In this document: in pieces, positions 3,952 to 29,027 of the stretch
Numbering within the stretch: position 1 is the first letter of the stretch
Layout: each line of letters opens with the position of its first letter
IMG/VR virus record: IMGVR_UViG_3300014039_000003
Coordinates: 64,001-93,027 of that record
From: a virus
Length of the DNA: 29,027 nt
Direction: 5' to 3' (one strand)
Position numbers and translations under genes: made by a program
The notes under the pieces: model-generated
What the model saw: the letters and a program-made list of their open reading frames with translations, nothing else
What the model was told of the DNA's origin: nothing
Database searches by the model: none

Positions 3952-4025
3952 TGGCGGCGCTTGCAGGATTTGAACCTACACTATCAGAGCCAAAATCTGA
4001 TGTGCTGCCCTTACACCAAAGCGCT
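3952..4025 (-). tRNA. tRNA-Gln(TTG)
   Basis: Cloverleaf with anticodon arm TCAGA-TTTTGGC-TCTGA, T arm GTAGG-TTCAAAT-CCTGC and encoded CCA. A1:C72 is mismatched. Confidence 0.85.
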
Positions 4026-4348
4026 GTGTTGCAGGACTCGGGCGGATATCGCTTGCATAATACCCGCCCAAAGTTCTGCTTAAGGAGGAATGAAATTTTG
4101 AAGCCGCTTGCAAGCAGCCGACAAAATGGAGTTGTCCAAAGGAACCGCCCGTATGGGCGGCATTTGTAAAACTAAGGAAACGTCGTAACGCCTCCTATAC
4201 AAAGGCGAATGAGCCTTTTGATAACCTAAGTTAAATCCAAGTCGCGCCTTTTCATCAGCCATCGGGATTTTTACGGCTTAACAAGCCGCCGCCGAGCGCT
4301 CAGGCAGTCCGATACTTAACTTCTCGCGCTTCCTCGCGCTTGGATTTG
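4026..4348 (-). ncRNA. Putative structured RNA between tRNA-Thr and tRNA-Gln
   Basis: No credible ORF. Contains several stems (GCCGCCC/GGGCGG, GCAGAACT/AGTCCTGC, AAATCCAAG/CTTGGATTT) and UCCUU tracts. Confidence 0.5.
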
Positions 4349-4423
4349 TGGAGCATCCTGCGTGACTCGAACACGCAACCCGCTGCTTACAGGGCAGCCG
4401 CTCTACCATTGAGCCAAGGATGC
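4349..4423 (-). tRNA. tRNA-Thr(TGT)
   Basis: Acceptor stem GCATCCT/AGGATGC, anticodon arm GCTGC-CCTGTAA-GCAGC, T loop TTCGAGT, CCA. Confidence 0.9.
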
Positions 4424-4532
4424 AGATACTCGGATTTGATATCGCTGGGACACATCATAGAGAGGTGCGGATAGTCTGACGTACCGAGCTTGTGGCATAA
4501 CCCACACGTCCCCGTTGCGCAATACGGGATAT

Positions 4533-4607
4533 TGGAGCCTTATGTTGGATTTGAACCTACGCGCTTCCGGTTAACAGCCGGACGCTCTTCCACTGAGCTA
4601 ATAAGGC
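4533..4607 (-). tRNA. tRNA-Asn(GTT)
   Basis: Acceptor stem GCCTTAT/ATAAGGC, anticodon arm TCCGG-CTGTTAA-CCGGA, CCA. The discriminator base is T. Confidence 0.85.
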
Positions 4608-5073
4608 AGATATTGACTTTGCATCAAATAAGGACTAAAATATGCTTGCCCATTTCGCGTGCCACAATAAGCGCGAGGGTAAGAAAGGAGCTGGTGTTTT
4701 TGTCCCAGTTTTTGATCTTGCCTGTCTCTGAAGCAAAGCCAATGCATGGGCAGAACGTGTATTAACACGCTCCGCAGTTCCCTACTGCTAAAGTGCGGTC
4801 GCCTTGGTTAAGAAAGGAACGCCACATCACGTCCATGACTCTCGGTAGTAAGCAGTGCAGATGCCGGTTACTCAGCCTACTGGTGGGTTATAATGGCCAG
4901 AACAGAATTAAAAGGACCAAAAGGAAAACCCTGTCTTACGAGTACGAAGTCAGGTGTTACCGATTGTCATTGCACCAAGGTTCAGAGAAAACAAATAGGG
5001 GAGAACTGCCGATGATGATGTGCTCGGTAGTTCTTTTGAACAAAAGGAAATATAACAAGACTCGCTTGTTATC
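4608..5073 (-). ncRNA. Putative ~465-nt multibranched RNA between tRNA-fMet and tRNA-Asn
   Basis: Long-range stems CCTTGGT/ACCAAGG (4803-4980) and TGCCCAT/ATGGGCA (4647-4752), local hairpins such as AGAACTACCGA/TCGGCAGTTCT, and many UCCUU tracts. No credible ORF. Confidence 0.5.
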
Positions 5074-5149
5074 TGGTTGCGGAGGCAGGACTTGAACCTG
5101 CGACCTCCGGGTCATGAGCCCGACGAGCTACCAACTACTCCACTCCGCA
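5074..5149 (-). tRNA. Initiator-type tRNA-fMet(CAT)
   Basis: Anticodon arm TCGGG-CTCATGA-CCCGG has the three consecutive G-C pairs of initiator tRNAs. Acceptor stem TGCGGAG/CTCCGCA, then ACCA. Confidence 0.88.
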
Positions 5150-5182: not shown

Positions 5183-5458
5183 GTCTAACAACTGTCTAAC
5201 ACTATTATTATTCAGCGATTTTTCGCACCACGCGAACCGTTTATTAATTGCGTTATATGGGAAAATCATGGTTCTACACTGTATGAAATCGAATGATACT
5301 GTTTGATATTCGCGTCACAACCACTGTTAACCGCAGGGTCGTTGGTTCGAGTCCAACAGGGGGAGCCATCTCAGAAGCCTTGAGCCTCAACGGGTTCGGG
5401 GCTTTTCCCTTTTCTAAAATAGCTCGAAATTCCCATGTGTCTAACATTTTGTCTAACA
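5183..5458. mobile_element. attP site: core is the 3' half of a host-type tRNA-Asn(GTT) (5324-5368, + strand), with GTCTAACA arm repeats
   Basis: CTGTTAACCGCAGGGTCGTTGGTTCGAGTCCAACAGGGGGAGCCA has no 5' tRNA half. Direct repeats GTCTAACA occur at 5183 and 5194 (left) and at 5439 and 5451 (right). The site adjoins the integrase 3' end. Confidence 0.85.
5373..5413 (+). terminator. Terminator following the att-core tRNA 3' half
   Basis: GAAGCCTTGAGCC...GGGTTCGGGGCTTT stem followed by TCCCTTTT. Confidence 0.55.
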
Positions 5459-6607
5459 CGCCTGAGCTAAAGTTTCGCGAATAATTTCAGAGGTCATCTT
5501 TTTCCTCGACAAATCAAGATGACCGTATATATTACAAGTCATTTTTATATCGGCGTGACCCATCCAATCTTGGACATCCTTGAGCGAACAACCTTTGGCG
5601 AGAAGAAGGCTCGCACAACTATGTCTTAGATCGTGGAATCTTATATGCGGGAGATTATATTTTCTCAATAGGTCTCCGAATTTGTGCGATATATATGACG
5701 GGTCGTACATTGCGCCATTCGCCCATTTGAAGATATAATCATTCTCCACATAGGCGTCTCCAAAGAACTCTCTGTTCTTCTGTTCCTCTTCTTTGAGCTG
5801 AAGCAGTAGCTCTCTAATTTCAGGAAACAGCGGAAACGACCGATAACTTGATTTGTTTTTGGTTTTGTCTTTCTCGACAACCTTGGTTGACATAGAGACC
5901 GTGTGACGTATAAGGATAGTATTTGTGTCAAAATCAATGCTTTGCCACTGTAGACCCAAAACCTCACTGCGCCGCAGTCCATACATGACTGTAGTTTGGA
6001 TGAGCGGATGCAAAGGTTCGTCCTTTATGGTCTCAAGCAGAGTGTTAATTTCACTGGCGTTATACCACTCATACTCCCGTCTCTCAAGTTTTGGGAGCCT
6101 CACGAGTTCACAGGGATTAGACCTTATGAGCTTATGCCGCATAGCCTCCTTAAAGGCAAGCTGAAGAACATTCTTATGCAGACGAAGGGTTTTAGGTGAT
6201 AGACCGCCATTCCCATCTTTTCTGCCGTGGGTCGCCTTATAGTCAAAATATTGCTGTATATTGTCAAGGTTGGCATCCACTAATTTTATTTTGTGTTCCT
6301 CAAAATACGGTTGAACATGAGAATCAACTATAACCTTATAGCCATCCCACGTTACAGTGTCTATGAAGGGTTTTGTCTCCGTGAGCCATTGGTCTAAGTA
6401 GTCTGAGATAAGTATGTTGGGTTCATAAATAAGCTGAGCACTTTCATACTCGCTGATTATAGACCGCATAGCCGCCTCAGCTTTACGCAGATTATTCTTT
6501 ACTTCATAACCTGTGTAAACCCACTTCTGCTTACGCTTTCCAGTGTTGTCTACGAAATTCAGAACGGCATAATATTTGCCGCGTTTTGCTTGCAAGCTTC
6601 CTGTCAA
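5453..6607 (-). CDS. int: Tyrosine recombinase / phage integrase
   Basis: Catalytic motifs GLRRSE, FHDLRHS and MGHADIKMTCNIYGH, plus an N-terminal arm-binding region. TTG start with SD AGAAAGGAG. Confidence 0.95.
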   Translation of the reverse strand: MTGSLQAKRGKYYAVLNFVDNTGKRKQKWVYTGYEVKNNLRKAEAAMRSIISEYESAQLIYEPNILISDYLDQWLTETKPFIDTVTWDGYKVIVDSHVQPYFEEHKIKLVDANLDNIQQYFDYKATHGRKDGNGGLSPKTLRLHKNVLQLAFKEAMRHKLIRSNPCELVRLPKLERREYEWYNASEINTLLETIKDEPLHPLIQTTVMYGLRRSEVLGLQWQSIDFDTNTILIRHTVSMSTKVVEKDKTKNKSSYRSFPLFPEIRELLLQLKEEEQKNREFFGDAYVENDYIFKWANGAMYDPSYISHKFGDLLRKYNLPHIRFHDLRHSCASLLLAKGCSLKDVQDWMGHADIKMTCNIYGHLDLSRKKMTSEIIRETLAQAC

Positions 6608-11998: not shown

Positions 11999-13177
11999 TT
12001 AGCTTAGCATTTTGCTTATAATGTTATCTATCGTCTGCGCGACCTCAACGAAGTCTTCTTCCTTATAGCCTTTCGTCGTCATCGCGGCAGTTCCGATTCT
12101 TATACCACTGGTCTGCACGGGACTGCGCTTTTCTCCGGGGACGCAGTTTTTGTTGAGCGTAATACCGTGTTTATCGAGCTCGTCCTGTACCATCTTGCCG
12201 CTGATGTTCGGATGCGTCTTCGACAGGTCAACCAAGAATAGGTGGTTGTCTGTTCCGCCGGTAACTACATCATACCCCAGTCTGATAAACTCATCTGCCA
12301 TAGCCTTGGAGTTTTTGACGACCTGATGGATATAATCGCGATACTCCTGAGTACAGGCTTCCTCTGCGACAACGGCTTTACCTGCGATGACGTGCTGTAA
12401 TGGTCCACCCTGAACGCCGGGGAACACAGCCTTGTCAACCTGTAGCGCAAGAGACGGCTTGCAGAAAATCATTCCGCCCCTTGGTCCACGCAGAGTTTTG
12501 TGGGTCGTCGTCGTAATAATGTCGGCGAGTCCAAAAGGGGAGGGGTGGTCGCCCGCAGCTACCAGTCCCGCGATATGAGCCATATCAACCATAAAGAGAG
12601 CGCCACACTCATTAGCTATAGAGGCGATTCTCTCAAAGTCAATGATACGACTATATGCAGAAGCTCCGGCGAGAATCAACGCGGGTCTGAACTCGTGCGC
12701 CTTTCGAGACAAGTCGTCGTAGTCGATAAAGCCGCGCTCATCTACCCCGTAGAAGTTGACGTCGTACAGCTTGCCCGAAAAATTCACAGCAGAGCCGTGC
12801 GTAAGATGCCCGCCGTTGTCGAGGCTCATAGCGAGAATCTTATCTCCGGGCTGAAGGACGCTCATATACGCCGCCATGTTCGCCTGTGAACCTGAGTGCG
12901 GCTGAACATTGACATGGTAGTCCGTGTTGAAGACCCCACGCCACTTATTACAACAATACTCTTCAAGAGCGTCCACATTTTCACAGCCGCCGTAGTATCT
13001 GCCTTTAGATCCCGACGCTCTGACTGCGGGATAGCCCTCCGAATATTTATTGGTTAGACACGAACCAACCGCCTTTAGAACATTATCACTCACAAAGTTT
13101 TCGGAAGCTATGAGTTCTATGTTGTGGGCTTGTCTTTCTTTCTCATCTCTTATGTACTTAAATACTTTTGATTCCAT
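11999..13177 (-). CDS. glyA: Serine hydroxymethyltransferase
   Basis: [34 protein letters not shown], the PLP-lysine motif [13 protein letters not shown], and SGIRIGT. Confidence 0.97.
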
Positions 13178-13608
13178 TAATTCACCTCATATAATTCCTT
13201 GGCTTTCGCCTGTACTAAACCCCAAAGCTTACAGTTTTCAATTTCTGTGTTTAAAATCCGCTCGATTTTTTCTGGCTCAAGTTGATGTCGATGCACTTCT
13301 GAGAAGCATGGCCACCCCGGCATTTTAAAAGCTTCACAATCGCTATATTCCCAAAAGTCAGTGCGCCCAGTATACCTGTTGTCTACAATCCAGATATGAT
13401 TACGGGCAATATGAATACCTATTTTGCGGTTTATCCAAAAATTACATTGCATAATCTGGTCGTTGATAGTCTCGGCACCGCCGTACCTGCACTCCCATTT
13501 ATCAGCTGTAATTCGCTCACCGTTAATTATCCAATCGTTTCCTTTACAGCTCGGCTCATTACCATTCCACGCATCCTCTGTTGTGTTAAATGGAATAGGA
13601 CAATCCAT
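13177..13608 (-). CDS. Hypothetical protein (143 aa)
   Basis: SD AGAAAGGAG before ATG; the stop overlaps the glyA start (TAATG coupling). Confidence 0.65.
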
Positions 13609-13623
13609 TAGTTAACTCCTTTC

Positions 13624-14376
13624 TCACGCACACACCTGCGGCGCGTCGATAAGTCCATTTTCGATAAGTTTCTTGTGGAAGAACTGTTTGCCCTGCGGAG
13701 TGAAGAACACCCTTATCTTCACGAAATCAGATTTCGTGTACCAGTCCTTGGTCTCGAATAAACCCTCATTGCTCTTCTTTGCGTAAGGACGAAGCTGCTG
13801 AGCGGGAGTGCGGTACAGATATTTTTCATCTATCAGAAAGTTGACAAACTTGCGTTCTGAGATGCCGAGCTCTTTAGCGGTGTCTCGAAGCCCCGTGCAT
13901 TTATTGGGGCTAACAAATGTGTCGTAGAAGTCAACCTTGGGAGCCTGTTCCTTGAGCTGCACGGTCATTCTTTTGCTTTCATTAAATATCATCGTCAGTG
14001 CGTGTTTCTGCGCAGAATCGAGCTGACCGAAATAGCTGTCAATAAACTGAGCGGCGTCGTTTACATATCCGCCTGTTTTACGAATCGTGGGGATGATGTC
14101 ATGAGTTATCCATCGCTTGAAAGCTTTTGCTTCTGGTTTGCGGGATCCGAGCACGAGGGAGTAAAGCCCGGATTCGTTGATAATTGTTCCATCCCCTTGT
14201 CGCCCTAAGTTGAACTTAGCCCGCTCGTCCTCATCGAGACGGCTTGTCGCTATTGTAGGGTTGCTTAAGTCGAGAGCTCTACACACATCAGCCGCCACAA
14301 ACCACGGTTCGCTGTCAATGGTTATAGTGCGGATTTCCCCAAATTCCTCATTGTTAAATACTGTCAGTTCATTCAT
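13624..14376 (-). CDS. Phage antirepressor (Bro-N + KilA-C)
   Basis: Bro-N pattern FNNEEFGEIRT...PWFVAADVC...INESGLYSLVLGSRKPEAKAFKRWIT...IRKTGGY, and C-terminal KilA-C pattern PKVDFYD...AKELG...FTPQGK. Confidence 0.9.
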   Translation of the reverse strand: MNELTVFNNEEFGEIRTITIDSEPWFVAADVCRALDLSNPTIATSRLDEDERAKFNLGRQGDGTIINESGLYSLVLGSRKPEAKAFKRWITHDIIPTIRKTGGYVNDAAQFIDSYFGQLDSAQKHALTMIFNESKRMTVQLKEQAPKVDFYDTFVSPNKCTGLRDTAKELGISERKFVNFLIDEKYLYRTPAQQLRPYAKKSNEGLFETKDWYTKSDFVKIRVFFTPQGKQFFHKKLIENGLIDAPQVCA

Positions 14377-14415
14377 TTCATTTTCTCCTTTATTTATAAT
14401 GTTAAAATTTGCAGA

Positions 14416-14753
14416 TGGGGTAACATTTCGTTACACCACCTCTATTATCACGAGACTTTTAGACATTTTTGTCTGAAAGTACCACATCGGTAGTTGAGGG
14501 GTGACGCTGAACGATTCATTCACCCCCCCCTACGAAGTGGGCACACCCCCATCTTGGAAACCTGCTCATTTTTGAGCGGGTTCGATTTATAATGGAAAAA
14601 CTCGATAACAATTCATTATTGAGTTTTTAGCCAGAGCCCTCATAACCCTCATTTGAAATGAGGGTAATCACTTTTATGTGGAAGGGGTCGATAATATCGA
14701 CCCCTGTAATATTTGTTGCCGGAAAGCTATTGGACAAAAATGTAGAATAGCTT
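14416..14753. repeat. Array of ~10 distinct 19-33 bp palindromes upstream of the antirepressor
   Basis: Inverted repeats at 14416-14438, 14456-14479, 14477-14495, 14498-14526, 14559-14582, 14596-14628, 14642-14668, 14683-14705 and 14724-14753, plus a half-site at ~14530-14550. Confidence 0.85.
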
Positions 14754-14758
14754 CTCCC

Positions 14759-15061
14759 TCACTTCTCCGCTCTGTACTTCGCCAACGCCGCCGTCGCCTT
14801 GCGCTTCTGTTCTTCGGAAATGCTTCGAGCGGCGTTCTTTCTTATAGTAACTGCGGAGGGGATAGCCCTTAAAATCATTCCGCACACAGTGCCGTCGTCG
14901 TAGACCGTCTGCTCTACAGGTGTCCAGCCTTTACGCAGCGCGGCATTGAAGTCTTTCGGGACGGTGCTGTCCATCGTCCACCCGTCGTCGTCTCTATATA
15001 TGTGTGTCTCTCGCTCAGCGATTGATATCTTACTCGTAATCTTCTTCGTCTTTATCTCCAT
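14759..15061 (-). CDS. Hypothetical protein (100 aa)
   Basis: ORF overlapping the end of the helicase-like gene, on the same strand as the operon. Confidence 0.6.
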   Translation of the reverse strand: MEIKTKKITSKISIAERETHIYRDDDGWTMDSTVPKDFNAALRKGWTPVEQTVYDDGTVCGMILRAIPSAVTIRKNAARSISEEQKRKATAALAKYRAEK

Positions 15062-16292
15062 TCTGAACCCTCTCCATCCAATCTTTTAAAAGTGTCCTCA
15101 TTCTTCTGCTCGGCACATACAGCCATATCTCTTCCCCGCGTCTTATAGCCGACCTCCATATCCACTGCAACATAGTTGAAAGAGCGTACATATCTTGGTC
15201 TACCTCTACGCCAAACTTCTCATACACACGCCTCTCCGCGACATTCATAAACAGGTTGACGGCATAGGCGAGATACCTCTTATTAATGTATGAGTTAGTA
15301 GCTCTCTCGTTGAAGACGACGTAACTCTTGGTGTAACCTTTACCCTTAACCTTATTGCAGGCGCTCTTATAGGTTCCCCACATACGCTCGTCCGCAGGTG
15401 AGTTCTTCCATATATGCTTGTAGCAGTTGGCTATATGATTCTTAACTGCCTTGAGCTCACCGTCCTCACCAGCCTTGCGCCTCTGATACCAGTTCATAGA
15501 CAGCGCATGGGGCGGGTCGCCTATACGGTTGAGCTTTGGCGACTCTACTATATGTATAAGGTCTTTGATGTGCTTGGTGTATTCCGGCACATAATCGGTA
15601 TTATCCGAGAAGCGATAAACGCCGTCCTTTAACGATACACCTATATATGTATAAGGGATTTTGTAAATCTTCATAAAATAGCAAAGTGCCTGTCCGGTAA
15701 ACAAATATGTCAGCACGAACACCTCATTGAACGAGGTCAGAAGCTCCTGCGGCAGAGCCCAGTAATAAAGCTTCTGCCCCTTTTGTCCATCAACACACAA
15801 AATATCGCGGGAGCGGAACATCTTCATCTCATCTTCAAATTTGCCTGAGTCGTAGAGCTTGTCTGTCGCCCGATATGTCGTGCCGTCTGATTCTAAGAAG
15901 CCTGTAGCGACAAGCCCACCGACATCATTGGTCTTCATTTGACTCTCGATAAGAATATCCAAACTCTCATCTATAATGAGGGTATAGCCAAGCTCTCTAA
16001 TCATCGCCAGCGTATCACGGTTATAATTTCTGAAAGCCGCATGGGTTGTCGTTATGTTGCGCCCCTCGTTTATAAGAGCGGCTGTGTGCTCCGTCTTTCT
16101 AAAATGGTATTCGCTCAGTTTGTTGCTCGGTTCGACGAAGTGCAGCTCCGGACAGCCCTCTTTGATACGATTGCTCTCCGCCAGATATGGCGTGATGTAA
16201 ATAAATTTCTTCTCCTTGTGCTCGTTCATATAGGTAATGGCAGCTTCGGTTTTACCAGTACCCATAATCGCATCGCATACTTTGACTTTGAT
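15030..16292 (-). CDS. SF2 helicase-like P-loop protein (SPbeta YonV-like; possible origin-binding protein)
   Basis: Walker A DAIMGTGKT, Walker B LIIDE, C-terminal QWIWRSAIR. The track start (16265) falls inside Walker A. The frame extends to ATC 16292 (IKVKVCDAIMG), which has SD AGGAGG 8 nt upstream. Confidence 0.8.
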   Translation of the reverse strand: MKVKVCDAIMGTGKTEAAITYMNEHKEKKFIYITPYLAESNRIKEGCPELHFVEPSNKLSEYHFRKTEHTAALINEGRNITTTHAAFRNYNRDTLAMIRELGYTLIIDESLDILIESQMKTNDVGGLVATGFLESDGTTYRATDKLYDSGKFEDEMKMFRSRDILCVDGQKGQKLYYWALPQELLTSFNEVFVLTYLFTGQALCYFMKIYKIPYTYIGVSLKDGVYRFSDNTDYVPEYTKHIKDLIHIVESPKLNRIGDPPHALSMNWYQRRKAGEDGELKAVKNHIANCYKHIWKNSPADERMWGTYKSACNKVKGKGYTKSYVVFNERATNSYINKRYLAYAVNLFMNVAERRVYEKFGVEVDQDMYALSTMLQWIWRSAIRRGEEIWLYVPSRRMRTLLKDWMERVQNGDKDEEDYE

Positions 16293-16865
16293 AGTGTTTT
16301 CCTCCTATTTGAACTTATTTTCTAAAAATGGTTCCAAACTGGCTCACAGCCCTTGTGTATCAAGGCATCTGAGCACCCCCTCTCTTAAAAAACAATTTTG
16401 TGTTATGTGAAGGTCACAAGTCCACTAACGTGTCCTTGCTCGCCACATAATTCCGCCTGCGGAGTAGGCGGGAGACTACGCTATACCACCTCGGGAGAAG
16501 TTCTCTTCGCAAGCTTCGCTAACTTCTCTTCGGAGATACCGCTGACGTCTCCCTCAAACATCTCCTTAGGCGGGTGGAAGGCTTCGCCTTATTCCTAAAG
16601 GAAGACTGCATCCTCGGTTCGCTCCATCTTGAGGCGAACTCAGCAAGCCTTTAACTGCGCTGCGCTTCGTTTCCGTTCGCCTTATTAGTGTCGCTCACCT
16701 CGGATTTGTCTTAAAACGGCTTACGCCGTAGCCTGTACCACCATGTTATGTATATACCTTACACCCGAGGTTAACTGATTTACCAAAATCTGAAGGTTAA
16801 ATTTATGAATAAACTATGAATAGGAGTAGAGGGTAGAGGCTTAGCGCGTAGCGATAAAAATAAAT

Positions 16866-16890
16866 AAAAAAAACGCGCCTTTCGGCGCGT
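16866..16890 (-). terminator. Intrinsic terminator
   Basis: Minus strand reads ACGCGCC-GAAA-GGCGCGT followed by a T run. Confidence 0.7.
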
Positions 16891-17437
16891 AAGACGATCG
16901 TATACATATAGAGCTTGTAGAAGCCTTCTTCGAAGATGTCAGCCTGTGCATACCAACCCTGATTGGTCTATAGGCTTATACCACGGACGAAAGACCGCTC
17001 GTAAGGTAGGTTTTAGGGATTTTAGCCTGTACCACATCTCTATCTCGGATGCTCGTAGGGGTAACTTGGTGCGTAGAGCGGGCTTTTACCAGTTTTTTTA
17101 AAATTTAAAAAAGCACCAATCTACCTGACCCGTAGAAGATAGCCTCTACTATGGGCAGGATTTGTGTAGTTCTGAGGGTCTATTTTGACGACGTGTGAGT
17201 GGTGTTGATTAACTAAGCGGTTTTTCACTAATATTTTTCTGCTATAGGTTTAAAATAGCCCCCGTGGGGCGTAGAATCCATAAAGCGGTATTTTATGGAT
17301 TATTATGCATAGATAGTCGAGGTATACAAGCTATGATATTTTAGTGCTATATAAGCATTATTTTTGTTGTATTTACAACACGTCAACACGTCAACACTGC
17401 ATTATATTTTATCACACATATATTACCATAAAACAAA

Positions 17438-17488
17438 ATAAAAAATACCTATACACCGAAAGATAAAATCTAATCGTATATAGGTATT
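17438..17488 (-). terminator. Probable terminator downstream of the Xre pair
   Basis: AATACCTATA...TATAGGTATT inverted repeat, followed by T-rich sequence on the minus strand. Confidence 0.45.
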
Positions 17489-17627
17489 ATATTATATATT
17501 ATATATAGCTCTATAGGTGCAATATTATACATAATAGCGCGTAGACCGTCTGACCGTCTGCGGCAGCGTCGCACGGTGTAGCCGTGCCCCGTAGACCCGT
17601 GCGAGGGTATTGTGCTATTATAGAATA

Positions 17628-17987
17628 TTATATATCATCGTTGGTACTGCTGCATGACGGCGGTAGGTGCAGTATGCCGCGCACATAGTCGGCGGATAGG
17701 TTAGCGGCGGCGGCAACGGTGGTTATAGCCGTGTCCAGATCCGGCGGGGCGGGTGTTGGTGCGGTGGTGGCACGGTCGAGTAGGTTATCTATAGATATAT
17801 TAAGATAGTCGCATATGCGGGCAATGGTGATATAAGATATAGCCGTACCGCGTGTCATATGATATATTGTATCTTTGTTTACCGATAGTTCTTGTAGCAT
17901 ATCTTTTAATGTGACATTATGTGACGTACACTCTTTTTTTATCTTTTGTGCAATAATAGACGGTTCATAGTTGTTAATATTAGACAA
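17628..17987 (-). CDS. Xre-family HTH transcriptional regulator
   Basis: KIKKECTSHNVTLKDMLQELSVNKDTIYHM...IARICDYLNISIDNLL pattern; TTG start. Confidence 0.8.
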   Translation of the reverse strand: MSNINNYEPSIIAQKIKKECTSHNVTLKDMLQELSVNKDTIYHMTRGTAISYITIARICDYLNISIDNLLDRATTAPTPAPPDLDTAITTVAAAANLSADYVRGILHLPPSCSSTNDDI

Positions 17988-18025
17988 TACATAACCCCCA
18001 AAACATATAGTTATATGTGCAATAG

Positions 18026-18397
18026 TTACAAAGATGTGTTACCTATATTGTCTATTGGTAAGTGTAATAAGCCGCGTATATAATCGGTGGATACGCCTTG
18101 AGTGCGGGCGATTATATCTATAGCGTCCGATATTGTCGGTGTAGGTGTAGTATTATCTGATAATAAAGTATTTATATCTATCAATAGATAGTTGCATACT
18201 TGAATTAATGCTTTAATTGATGGATAACTGCCGCGCGTATCCATATAATAGAGCATATTTTTAGATATGTCTAAGTCGTGCAACATCGTACTAACAGATA
18301 TATTTTTATCTTTTGCGGCTTGCTTTATTCTTTTTGAGATTATAGGCGGCTCAATGTCCGTCATGTTGTACAACTCGGCGGGCTTATTTTCATTCAT
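18026..18397 (-). CDS. Xre-family HTH transcriptional regulator (paralog of neighbour)
   Basis: RIKQAAKDKNISVSTMLHDLDISKNMLYYM...PSIKALIQVCNYLLIDINTLL. ATG at 18397 has GGAGG upstream. Confidence 0.8.
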   Translation of the reverse strand: MNENKPAELYNMTDIEPPIISKRIKQAAKDKNISVSTMLHDLDISKNMLYYMDTRGSYPSIKALIQVCNYLLIDINTLLSDNTTPTPTISDAIDIIARTQGVSTDYIRGLLHLPIDNIGNTSL

Positions 18398-18441
18398 TTG
18401 TTGTGCAATCCTCCAAAGGTAGAAAAATATAGAAAAATCTG

Positions 18442-18470
18442 TTGACTTTGTCACCAATTGGTGCTAATAT
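18442..18470 (+). promoter_or_regulatory. Rightward sigma-A promoter with a palindromic operator in its spacer
   Basis: TTGACT-17 nt-TAATAT. The perfect palindrome CACCAATTGGTG lies at 18452-18463. Confidence 0.7.
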
Positions 18471-18582
18471 ATAGGCGTACCAAACAAGGACACCGCGGAT
18501 CAGCCGCCGATGATGAGCCATTGAGCCACGCGGATAAGGCGCGCGGGGATCTCGCAAAGTACAGATTGTCCGAATATCCACC

Positions 18583-18611
18583 ATTATAAAACAAGGAGGT
18601 TAAAAAGTCAA
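18583..18611 (-). promoter_or_regulatory. Leftward sigma-A promoter for the Xre pair
   Basis: Minus strand reads TTGACT-17 nt-TATAAT. Confidence 0.75.
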
Positions 18612-19314
18612 GCAACGGAAAGCGGAACACATAAATATTATTGTTAGCCTTGCAATACTTTGATATTGCTATCACGCTATGACGGTCAAAAGACTATCAG
18701 CTAAAGGCGGCGCGTGCCGTGACGCGTTTATCGTATACAATAATATTGTTAAATATCGGTAACGGCGGCGGGACACTCTCAACCGTTACCATGCCGCATA
18801 GGGGCGCTATGCGGGGCGAATAAAGGCATTTTATTACAAGTCCGTAAAGGATTAAAGAAATAACTGCCATTTAAGCGGGTGTATTATCTACTTAAATACT
18901 TTAATTCTGTTGTGCTAAAATGGAGAGTCCGGGGACGGCTTGAACCCGTCCGAACCTTTGAGTTCCTTTGCCGTTGGTATTGATATATACGCGATAAAGT
19001 ATATCAATAATAAGAAAAAAATAACCCGTGCATTAATGCTATAAAGATATTTTAGCTTTACACTGCCCGCGATATTTCTTAGGAAATACGGATAACGGGC
19101 GGCAATTTTTTATTCTTAGGAATAAATATTTATCGTAAAGCGGGGATATTTATATTTCATTGTTGGAAAATGTACGGTGACGAGTAATAATTGATACGTT
19201 GAGATATTAAGACATTTTAACACATTTCGAGCGCGTGAACTGTTGCAAGTTTGCGCGTTTTTTAATGTGCTAAAAAGCATATAAAAATTTTATTAAAGGA
19301 CGGTAAAAAAAATC

Positions 19315-28548: not shown

Positions 28549-29027
28549 ATGAAAACATATAAAGGCTTTGATAAGGATTTAAAGTGCAGAGGTTTCCAGT
28601 ATGAAATAGGTAAAGACTATGAGGAAGAAGAGGCGAGAGCTTGTGAAAAAGGATTTCACGCTTGCGAGAATCCTTTTGATGTATTTAATTATTACCCGCC
28701 GTGCGACGGAAATCGATATTGCGAGGTAGAGCAGGACGGAGAGCTTTCCAAACATGGCAATGATTCCAAAGTTGCTTCGACCAAAATAAAAATCGGTGTT
28801 GAGCTCGGACTTAAGGGACTTATACAAGCGGGTGTTTCGTTTATCCTCGACAGGGTCAACTGGAAAGACGATAAGGCAACGAACACAGGCGACCGTTCGG
28901 CGGCAACGAACACAGGCTACCAGTCGGCGGCAACGAACACAGGCTACCGTTCGGCGGCAACGAACACAGGCTACCAGTCGGCGGCAACGAACACAGGCTA
29001 CCAGTCGGCGGCAACGAACACAGGCTA
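28549..29027 (+). CDS. Conserved phage protein (YKGFDKDLKCRGFQY N-terminal family) with SAATNTG repeats; truncated by window end
   Basis: Hand translation MKTYKGFDKDLKCRGFQYEIGKDYEEEEARACEKGFHACENPFDVFNYY..., open to the window end. Confidence 0.75.
   Translation, partial: MKTYKGFDKDLKCRGFQYEIGKDYEEEEARACEKGFHACENPFDVFNYYPPCDGNRYCEVEQDGELSKHGNDSKVASTKIKIGVELGLKGLIQAGVSFILDRVNWKDDKATNTGDRSAATNTGYQSAATNTGYRSAATNTGYQSAATNTGYQSAATNTG
28876..29027 (+). repeat. 27-bp in-frame tandem repeat (ATNTG[D/Y][R/Q]SA), at least 5.6 copies
   Basis: GCAACGAACACAGGC-(GACCGT/TACCAG/TACCGT)-TCGGCG units start at 28876, 28903, 28930, 28957, 28984 and 29011. Confidence 0.95.

Follow-up and report, generated by a model that had tools for sequence, protein, structure and literature searches.

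The 382-bp spacer (positions 14377-14758) upstream of a phage antirepressor gene is, as judged from DNA-level matches, a stack of orphan copies of coding palindromes carried inside other antirepressor genes. It lies in a window of 29,027 nt, the whole stretch of DNA analysed here, from a gut phage of a temperate lineage with a genome of ~93 kb, and its array is the sole such cluster across that genome. Within the genes, the pairing of the palindrome is, on comparative grounds, maintained by compensatory changes and exceeds the demands of the peptide. The literature searches gave no account of palindromes within the coding sequences of bro or ant genes, which does not by itself prove that none exists, and the piling up of orphan coding palindromes before an antirepressor gene was found in no paper.

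Palindromic units in the spacer

Under a fixed definition (8 or more matched pairs, no more than 1 mismatch, spacer up to 8), six strong palindromes were counted between the two genes (U1, U2, U5, U6, U7 and U8), where three weaker ones, U3, U4 and U9, are also present (Table 1). This corresponds to 15.7 palindromes per kb versus 0.99 per kb over all 93 kb of the genome, where no other stretch of 382 bp has as many as five under the same rule. Shuffled versions of the spacer (n = 300) had 0.23 palindromes on the average, with a maximum of 2. Each unit is single-copy and none recurs elsewhere in the genome. The ten palindromes listed by the initial annotation were all present where it had placed them, and the array does lie upstream of the Bro-N gene, the genes being on the minus strand. 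The unit peptides had been translated on the + strand, i.e. the wrong one; the readings are nearly equal on both strands because the units are palindromic. The stop codon noted in U7 exists on the + strand only, the gene strand reading ITLISNEGY.

Table 1. Palindromic units and neighbouring genes (positions in the window)
Feature	Position	Strand	Description	Basis or in-gene form
Antirepressor gene	13624..14376	-	Bro-N (aa 14-96) + KilAC/ANT (aa 140-237), 250 aa	Pfam, translation
G1	14205..14219	-	Resident in-gene palindrome CTAAGTT-C-AACTTAG, coding AKFNLG	Gene nt 158-172
U1	14416..14438	-	Bro-N-type orphan, related to KGVTKCDT class	Core GGTGTAACGAAATGT
U2	14455..14480	-	AntA-type orphan, DFQTFLSES class	ACTTTCAGAC-ATTTTT-GTCCGAAAGT
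U3	14477..14495	not set	Weak palindrome, 6/7 pairs, no class	
U4	14498..14526	not set	Nested palindrome GGGGTGA...TCACCCC, 7-bp arms, 15-nt nested loop	
U5	14559..14582	-	AntA-type orphan, NLLKNERV class	AACCTGCTC-AAAAAT-GAGCGGGTT in L114-L118
U6	14596..14628	+	Bro-N-type orphan, KLNNxSLSSL class	IMG/VR pattern scan
U7	14642..14668	-	Bro-N-type orphan, ITLISNEG class	
U8	14683..14705	-	Bro-N-type orphan, SGVDIIDP class, perfect palindrome with 11-bp arms	
U9	14724..14753	-	AntA-type orphan, DY(R/S)TFLSNR class, 2 mismatches	
Upstream ORF	14759..15061	-	100 aa, phrog_1709	

Seven units (U1, U2 and U5-U9) match, at the DNA level, in-gene palindromes of the antirepressor genes of other phages (designated below by L numbers). 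The matches fall at the equivalent Bro-N or AntA loop, which bears out the earlier impression that the units resemble hypervariable-loop segments of antirepressors. U1, U6, U7 and U8 are of the Bro-N type, and U2, U5 and U9, with a C-ATTTTT-G centre, of the AntA type. At the in-gene site, the core of U1 matches L043 and L009-L011 over 14/14 positions; U7 matches L017-L019 over 26/26 nt and L032 over 24/24, and was also seen inside the gene in one contig from an RNA library run; U8 gives a 20/21 match in L003-L006, L023, L034 and L039; U9 has a 17-nt identity with the in-gene site of the AntA-KilAC genes of L023, L034, L039 and L037. The orphans, 21-33 nt long, retain only 0-5 nt of gene flank. 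U6 is inverted relative to the resident gene, and U2 has either its loop or the entire unit inverted relative to its in-gene form. U3 is a conserved linker joining U4 and U2 in several relatives, while U4, whose inner palindrome is inverted in L011, is tentatively classed as the positional counterpart of a KGVSKSVTP-like unit of L037.

Three orphan stems are compensated or longer than the in-gene forms: the outer pair of U8 is A.T instead of G.C, the stem of U9, which stands directly 3' of the stop codon of the upstream gene, is 3 bp longer, and the outer stem of U6 extends to A5...T5. As far as such comparisons tell, this is not neutral decay. Folding of the spacer as RNA gave, against shuffles, z values of -6.8 (gene strand) and -8.7 (+ strand). 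The terminator scan flagged only U7 and U8, both on the + strand; U6, with T5 on both strands, looks like a terminator in both directions, and the remaining units have no U-run. A scan for sigma-70-type promoters found none on the gene strand near the units, and a search of positions 13000-16000 against Rfam 15 returned nothing at gathering score, its two sub-threshold matches being at chance level.

Other identities were considered for the spacer. It contains no tRNA or tRNA remnant, the four tRNAs of the window being at 3952-5149. A DGR was rejected, with no RVT_1 reverse transcriptase match in the genome, and so was a dispersed mobile palindrome (REP/BIME or MITE type), since each unit occurs once in the genome, which codes for no Y1 transposase. 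In the phages collection the locus had no close relative, and the Bro-N coding matches obtained there were all weak. Among the relatives studied below, conservation ends at the stop codon of the upstream phrog_1709 ORF.

The in-gene palindrome and its pairing

The domain assignment of the antirepressor gene is firmly above the Pfam gathering cut-offs, both for Bro-N (PF02498, 7e-23, 81.5 bits versus 25.6) and for KilAC (PF03374, 6e-24, 84.8 bits versus 25.3). Its own palindrome, G1, codes for the first strand and the tip of a β-hairpin spanning aa 52-66 (AlphaFold2 strands E52-56 and E62-66), and the G1 segment (23-29 nt) stays the same in genes whose overall identity is only 37-70%. The genes carrying a coding palindrome have a Bro-N or AntA N-domain fused to KilAC; the palindrome is at gene nt ~145-185, within the segment for the first strand and tip of the exposed hairpin. 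Its centre falls at gene nt 151-180 in most of the genes surveyed, namely 84% of the Bro-N genes (n = 49, non-redundant) and 91% of the AntA genes (n = 33). In the other 15-nt bins, a palindrome was found in usually 0-12%, and at most 16%, of the Bro-N genes and in 0-15% of the AntA genes, apart from 27% in one neighbouring bin.

In Bro-N and AntA alike the encoded hairpin comes after two helices, i.e. in a wing-like position, and a profile comparison of the two domains detected no homology (hhalign probability 2%). With Bro-N as query, a structure search retrieved the Mbp1/APSES DNA-binding domain and the N-domain of baculovirus Orf22, both weakly (TM ~0.5, E 0.015-0.03); the Foldseek search with the AntA model gave nothing significant, and a sequence search of solved structures gave no match.

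The in-gene palindromes have on average 8.3 matched pairs versus 5.9 in synonymous-codon shuffles. By covariation count, 12/13 pairs in Bro-N and 10/13 in AntA had changed on both sides. The proportion of paired cells was 85% (Bro-N) and 86% (AntA), against 53% and 68% in the shuffles, and fell to 29-47% in slid controls; none of 500 shuffles was equally high for percentage paired, for cells changed on both sides or for covariation score. The shuffles and the covariation thus uphold the proposal of the initial annotation that the DNA site, and not the peptide, would be what is retained. The palindromes fall into discrete classes whose DNA sequence is highly conserved, and in the alignments of in-gene palindromes a T(-6)/A(+6) pair and a CA..TG core are invariant. 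This combination hints at sequence-specific recognition, and would favour a binding site. In the KLNN class, 66/70 genes have a sense-strand A.C mismatch, and AntA in-gene stems often show a T.G wobble on that strand; such mismatches follow no consistent strand, and neither prove action at the DNA level nor exclude it at the RNA level. G.U asymmetry was dropped as a discriminator between RNA and DNA, as the classes contradict each other.

Variation among relatives and origin of the units

Among phages with 84-95% identity in the flanks, arrays can be as short as one or two units or as long as about ten, and close relatives gain, lose, reorder and invert units. L005, L006 and L016, which are otherwise near-identical, have no array or one or two units (in part U1 alone) and keep the gene; the array is therefore dispensable. 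L009 and L010 carry U6 in the orientation opposite to that of L011, and the centre of the KLNN class occurs in reverse-complement pairs (27:18 and 10:5), the arm asymmetry staying fixed. U1 keeps its place beside the gene start in nearly all relatives, and one AntA-type plus one Bro-N-type palindrome are kept there in most; this pair could have a regulatory role. No covariation was seen between the unit nearest the gene start and the palindrome resident in the gene. Further array variants were found in public sequencing data (assembled contigs from four runs).

Exchanges within the gene, which the initial annotation had suggested looking for, were also found. Along the ~750-nt gene, L016 and L007 share 90-100% identity in almost all 30-nt segments, the exception being one divergent patch of ~55-70 nt centred on the palindrome; between L043 and L016 the patch ends within the right arm. 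The conserved gene flanks code for DxDK and INESGLY. On a larger scale, the same KilAC domain carries swapped Bro-N or AntA N-domains, and truncated Bro-N pieces lie upstream of the gene, with microhomologies at the junctions (e.g. GTGCTCGG). The units of L034 and L037 are found amid plain debris of displaced alleles, and L008, L030, L033, L034, L037, L039 and L041 harbour, upstream of the gene, silent copies of the G1 segment (91 nt, 97-98% identity). A lack of enrichment inside antirepressor ORFs and an array invariant among relatives had been named as outcomes that would speak against the initial annotation; the palindromes are enriched there and the array varies, and hence neither outcome was obtained.

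Tentatively, we favour the view that the array is made of leftovers of displaced alleles, the hairpin parts of which would be preferentially kept by DNA folding, with the units as by-products; we put its chances at slightly less than even. The 5' half of the antirepressor gene is a recombination hot spot in this temperate ~93-kb lineage: alleles trade short patches centred on the palindrome, entire N-domains are exchanged on a constant KilAC domain, and pieces of the displaced alleles would accumulate between the upstream gene and the gene start. Palindromes would be preferentially retained from this debris, and at times lengthened or re-perfected. A single force would preserve palindromy inside genes and in orphan units, taken here to be a DNA hairpin or cruciform with intrastrand template switching, which would correct arms and flip loops and units. 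Template switching would in turn make the hairpin-coding segment hypervariable and recombination-prone, and the orphans would have no specific role, being at most generic hairpins. Against this view, the window array retains almost only palindromes, where random debris should contain other gene parts too, as it does in L034 and L037; this speaks for selection acting on the palindromes. Arm correction and spacer inversion are the outcome of quasi-palindrome template-switch mutation in the model of Ripley. The homogenised arms and the loops and units inverted between relatives resemble it, but that model concerns a mutational process and no element, and leaves the fixed position in two gene families unexplained. 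Such correction alone, keeping a tolerant loop segment palindromic, with the orphans as neutral debris of slowed decay and no function at all, would agree with the frequency of flips and inversions and with orphans perfected or extended without coding constraint. We consider it very improbable, as it accounts neither for the shared distance from the start codon in two N-domain families without detectable sequence homology, nor for the lack of palindromes in other tolerant loops, the rest of the genes being at background.

Among functional alternatives, the operator or decoy panel of the initial annotation supposes that each N-domain binds the palindrome in its own gene and that the orphans are sites for heterologous proteins of co-resident phages, so that the array would tie expression of the gene to those phages or titrate their proteins. 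The DNA-binding-type fold of Bro-N with its weak structure matches, the wing-like hairpin of both families, the discrete classes with their invariant pairs, the non-self classes in the arrays, the two-type pair beside the gene start and a window array reduced to palindromes are consistent with it. We nevertheless regard it as unlikely: the gene persists in L005, L006 and L016 without array or with U1 alone, the unit at the gene start ignores the resident palindrome, debris predicts non-self content equally, units of relatives stand amid obvious gene fragments, and there is no sigma-70-type promoter on the gene strand for the units to flank. Its more specific form, in which the wing-like β-hairpin of Bro-N or AntA would read its own encoding palindrome and the array would be a panel of foreign sites sensing or titrating other phages' antirepressor-type proteins, is less probable still. 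Dyad-symmetric sites for a protein within its own gene are known in lambda, where the iterons of ori, bound by O, lie inside gene O. There, as here, dyad-symmetric DNA within the coding region of a DNA-binding-type protein makes site, here a putative one, and protein co-inherited; the present case differs by its one palindrome without iterons, its hypervariability with compensatory change and the extra copies outside the gene. The Roi protein of HK022 is also said to bind a site in its own gene, as reportedly described by Clerget and Boccard in 1996; it was dropped as a parallel, its N-terminal half being Rha-like by sequence reading and giving no tblastn match to the window protein.

An RNA element, i.e. 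an in-gene stem-loop setting the stability, processing or translation of the mRNA, with orphans kept as terminators or protectors of 3' ends, seems distinctly unlikely. The strong RNA folding of the spacer, the stem of U6 with T-runs in both directions, the terminator-like U7 and U8 (on the + strand), the position of U9 against the upstream stop codon and the sense-strand T.G wobbles of AntA speak for it. Against it stand the lack of a U-run on the gene strand in most units, the A.C mismatch retained by the KLNN class, 1-nt spacers that make poor RNA loops, inversions of loops and units, which are DNA events, the lack of an Rfam match and the dispensability of the array. Intrinsic terminator clusters likewise place stable stem-loops between two co-directional genes, with T-runs as in U6, but most units here have no such gene-strand run and are homologous to antirepressor coding segments. 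As to silent cassettes, gene conversion from unexpressed copies is known for pilE/pilS of Neisseria and vlsE/vls of Borrelia. The array would by analogy be a library of donors copied into the expressed gene to switch the hairpin. Like those systems, the locus has unexpressed copies of a hypervariable segment next to the expressed gene and alleles that differ by short patches, in otherwise near-identical genes; several relatives even have the 91-nt G1 copies, and orphans equal forms expressed in relatives. In contrast with them, the orphans are bare palindromes from two domain families and are often inverted. The donor-cassette idea of the initial annotation proved a poor fit, and such a library is unlikely, indeed very much so in our estimate: flanking homology is almost nil, the exchanged patches (55-70 nt or more) are longer than the units, the three AntA-type units would misfit a Bro-N frame, some others are inverted or have stems extended by non-coding sequence, and the flanks coding for DxDK and INESGLY permit ordinary homologous recombination between co-infecting phages.

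Palindromic DNA inserted in frame and read within genes is known from the Rickettsia palindromic elements (RPE). REP/BIME are short palindromes found in intergenic arrays in either orientation (PMC8266576). The present array resembles REP/BIME in its short palindromes in either orientation, and the in-gene copies resemble RPE in being palindromic DNA read in frame, but the array units are mutually different and genome-unique, no RAYT/Y1 transposase is encoded and, unlike sporadic insertions, the in-gene copies occupy a homologous site in almost all members of the family. Integron attC sites, which act as folded single strands, also form arrays of differing imperfect palindromes; here there are no cassettes between the units (21-33 nt), no adjacent IntI and no conserved R/L boxes.

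Significance and wider occurrence

Genes of the antirepressor type (Bro-N, AntA, KilAC) rank with the most common yet most poorly understood ones in phages and large DNA viruses. That a nucleic-acid element is preserved in them by compensatory evolution implies that something acts on their DNA or RNA, be it a regulator, some mechanism of recombination or diversification, or the antirepressor-type proteins themselves. This element occurs at one spot in two N-domain families without detectable homology and is copied beside the gene. The ~25 near-identical phages with differing arrays, patch swaps and flips constitute an exceptionally favourable natural experiment for telling these candidates apart. 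Should it prove to be a built-in diversifier or a self-encoded binding site, the palindrome would represent a new principle for the way in which specificity modules evolve and travel between viruses; if the hairpin reads its own palindrome, a single cassette of ~30-60 nt would combine a binding site and its matching reader.

A scan of IMG/VR with the U6 pattern returned 97 stretches; among the 80 listed, ~85% were inside Bro-N genes at the loop site. The U6-like matches in the unrelated phages L186 and L229 resemble ordinary AT-rich terminators and are probably due to chance, and those in L164, L205 and L222, also unrelated, may be true orphan units.

The phage and its palindrome-rich spacer

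The phage record is 93,027 bp long, carries direct terminal repeats and was judged complete; the window is its final 29 kb. Because a tyrosine integrase gene adjoins a tRNA cluster, the 93-kb phage is, by its gene content, temperate. Every gene around the palindrome array is carried by the minus strand.

Features of the antirepressor locus and of the integration module (window coordinates)
Feature	Position	Strand	Remarks
Tyrosine integrase	5453-6607	-	phrog_1, 1.5e-66; adjoins four tRNA genes
Four clustered tRNA genes (Gln, Thr, Asn, Met)	3952-5149	-	
Antirepressor gene	13624-14376	-	250 aa; Bro-N N-domain and KilAC/ANT C-domain
Spacer with palindrome array	14377-14758		382 bp
100-aa ORF	14759-15061	-	upstream of spacer

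The initial annotation had described a series of palindromes in the spacer, and all of them are indeed present at the positions it gave. They are designated U1 to U9, numbered outward from the start of the antirepressor gene, and each is single copy in the genome. Counted by one set rule (8 or more pairs, no more than 1 mismatch, spacer no longer than 8), the 382 bp contain 6 palindromes, i.e. 15.7 per kb versus 0.99 per kb genome-wide; no other 382-bp window of the genome has 5 or more, and shuffled versions of the spacer averaged 0.23, with no more than 2 in any of them.

Three other features were noted. The phage carries an auxiliary metabolic gene for serine hydroxymethyltransferase (Pfam SHMT, 2e-150; 11999-13177, minus strand), two genes downstream of the antirepressor gene. 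The direct terminal repeat is made of tandem ~27-nt repeats (GGCAACGAACACAGGC.ACC...TCGGC) found at both contig ends (window ~28830-29027 and start of the genome record). At ~16400-19300, 2-4 kb from the array, the genes switch from the minus to the plus strand and the cumulative GC skew reaches its minimum; an origin or a divergent control region may lie there.

Counterparts of the units inside antirepressor genes

Each unit was used as a short-word query against 80 loci of other phages or contigs (L-numbers) encoding Bro-N protein relatives, and matches were found inside Bro-N genes, at one constant site. U7 matched 26/26 nt at the ITLISNEG codons of L017-L019 and 24/24 in L032, U8 matched 20/21 nt at SGVDIIDP in L003-L006, L023, L034 and L039, and the core of U1 was found at KGVTKCDT of L043 and L009-L011. 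A pattern scan of IMG/VR with U6 returned 97 stretches; ~85% of the 80 listed lie inside Bro-N genes at the loop site, where they code KLNNxSLSSL. The resident in-gene palindrome of the window, G1 (14205-14219, coding AKFNLG), is unchanged over 23-29 nt in genes with only 37-70% overall identity.

U9, U5 and U2, which have a C-ATTTTT-G or C-AAAAAT-G centre, match AntA genes and not Bro-N. The AntA N-domain (Pfam PF08346) sits on the same KilAC C-domain in several close relatives, and palindromes of this kind occur at nt 143-171 of AntA genes, with DYRTFLSNR corresponding to U9, NLLKNERV to U5 and DFQTFLSES to U2 (inverted). All units except U3 (weak) and U4 (tentative) were assigned to an in-gene class. 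Since the units match in-gene sites of both Bro-N and AntA genes, the resemblance to antirepressor loops proposed in the initial annotation is correct, save that its peptides were taken from the wrong strand. As judged from these matches, the array consists of orphan copies, outside any gene, of coding palindromes from both N-domain families, of which it unites at least seven classes. Our literature search found no description of coding palindromes in antirepressor genes or of such an array.

Candidate orphan palindromes of the KLNN Bro-N class are also intergenic in unrelated phage contigs (L164, 2216-2246; L205, 5074-5102; L222, 349-377), with no Bro-N gene within the stretch examined around them. 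Elsewhere, a KNTVVLTDG-class palindrome (92% match) lies ~100 nt downstream of a Bro-N gene in unrelated temperate-type contigs (L024/L025, 4844-4869; L031, 4886-4911); it may be an orphan unit or belong to a second gene.

Conservation of pairing in the coding palindromes

A palindrome with 7 or more pairs has its centre at nt 151-180 in 84% of 49 non-redundant Bro-N genes, the other 15-nt bins being mostly at 0-12% and at most at 16%; of 33 non-redundant AntA genes, 91% have one with 9 or more pairs, its centre falling at nt 151-165. Matched pairs numbered 8.3 versus a mean of 5.9 in synonymous-codon shuffles, and in many classes only 0-2 of 300 shuffles equalled the observed pairing. In the centre-aligned sets both sides change at 12/13 pairs (Bro-N) and 10/13 (AntA). 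Paired cells amount to 85% versus 53% in shuffles for Bro-N and 86% versus 68% for AntA (0/500 shuffles as high), and drop to 29-47% in slid controls. For example, CTAAGTTCAACTTAG codes AKFNLG and CTAGATTCAATCTAG codes ARFNLG. All 23 centre-aligned Bro-N-type palindromes (alignment A3) share an unvarying T(-6)/A(+6) pair, though the frame relative to the centre varies between classes; AntA-type units have an invariant C-A...T-G flanking a T-rich centre. Mismatch types showed no consistent strand. Read from this pattern of variation, the palindromes are maintained as nucleic-acid structures.

Profile-profile comparison found no homology between Bro-N and AntA (probability 2%). In the AlphaFold2 model of either domain, the residues coded by the palindrome form the opening strand and the tip of a beta-hairpin following two helices, a structural position common to both domains that the window brings to light; the Bro-N model bears a weak resemblance to APSES/Mbp1-type DNA-binding domains.

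Turnover of the locus and possible origins of the array

About 25 relatives share the upstream block at 84-95% identity as far as the stop codon at 14759, beyond which the spacer diverges, and the number, content and orientation of the units differ. L005, L006 and L016 keep ~95 bp with a sole U1-like unit, L043, L012, L013 and L007 have one AntA-type unit plus U1, L002 and one public contig are without U9-U6, and in L009-L011 the units outnumber those of the window. The in-gene segment swaps looked for since the initial annotation are clear: a patch of ~55-70 nt, with the palindrome at its centre, distinguishes L016 from L007, with 90-100% identity in nearly every other 30-nt window of the gene, and between L043 and L016 the exchanged patch stops within the right arm. 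Truncated Bro-N pieces precede an AntA-KilAC gene in L034, L037 and others; they include 91-nt copies of the G1 segment (97-98% identity) joined at microhomologies. U6, inner U4, U8 and U9 are inverted between relatives, and in the KLNN class (70 distinct genes) the centres form reverse-complement pairs (27:18 and 10:5) with a fixed arm asymmetry, which puts numbers on these loop flips. Some orphan units (U8, U9, U6) have stems compensated or longer than the in-gene forms. By these comparisons the locus evidently turns over fast, through swaps on the scale of short patches and of domains and through illegitimate recombination.

We tentatively favour the view that displaced antirepressor alleles leave debris of which the hairpin-forming parts stay. 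Acting as DNA, the palindrome would fold into a hairpin or cruciform at which template switching takes place, and would so make the hairpin-coding segment hypervariable. An operator or decoy panel, with the units as candidate binding sites, would fit the discrete and conserved palindrome classes, the T(-6)/A(+6) and CA..TG pairs that never vary and the fact that palindromes are retained bare; we consider it unlikely. At the RNA level the spacer has folding z-scores of -6.8 and -8.7, and no tRNA was found and no Rfam family matched in it; that the units are RNA stem-loops or terminators seems quite improbable. It is very doubtful that the palindromes are a by-product of mutation alone. Patch exchange could also draw on the units as silent-cassette donors, a role to which we give very little credence.

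Two minor observations concern gene integrity. A truncated stand-alone Bro-N ORF (~98 aa, SGVDIIDP allele; L034 4001-4315, also L023 and L039) has gene debris on one side and a complete AntA-KilAC gene on the other, and may give rise to a free Bro-N domain. In the close relative L043 (4001-4486), the Bro-N/KilAC frame ends at 161 aa; either the gene is broken or the assembly is in error.
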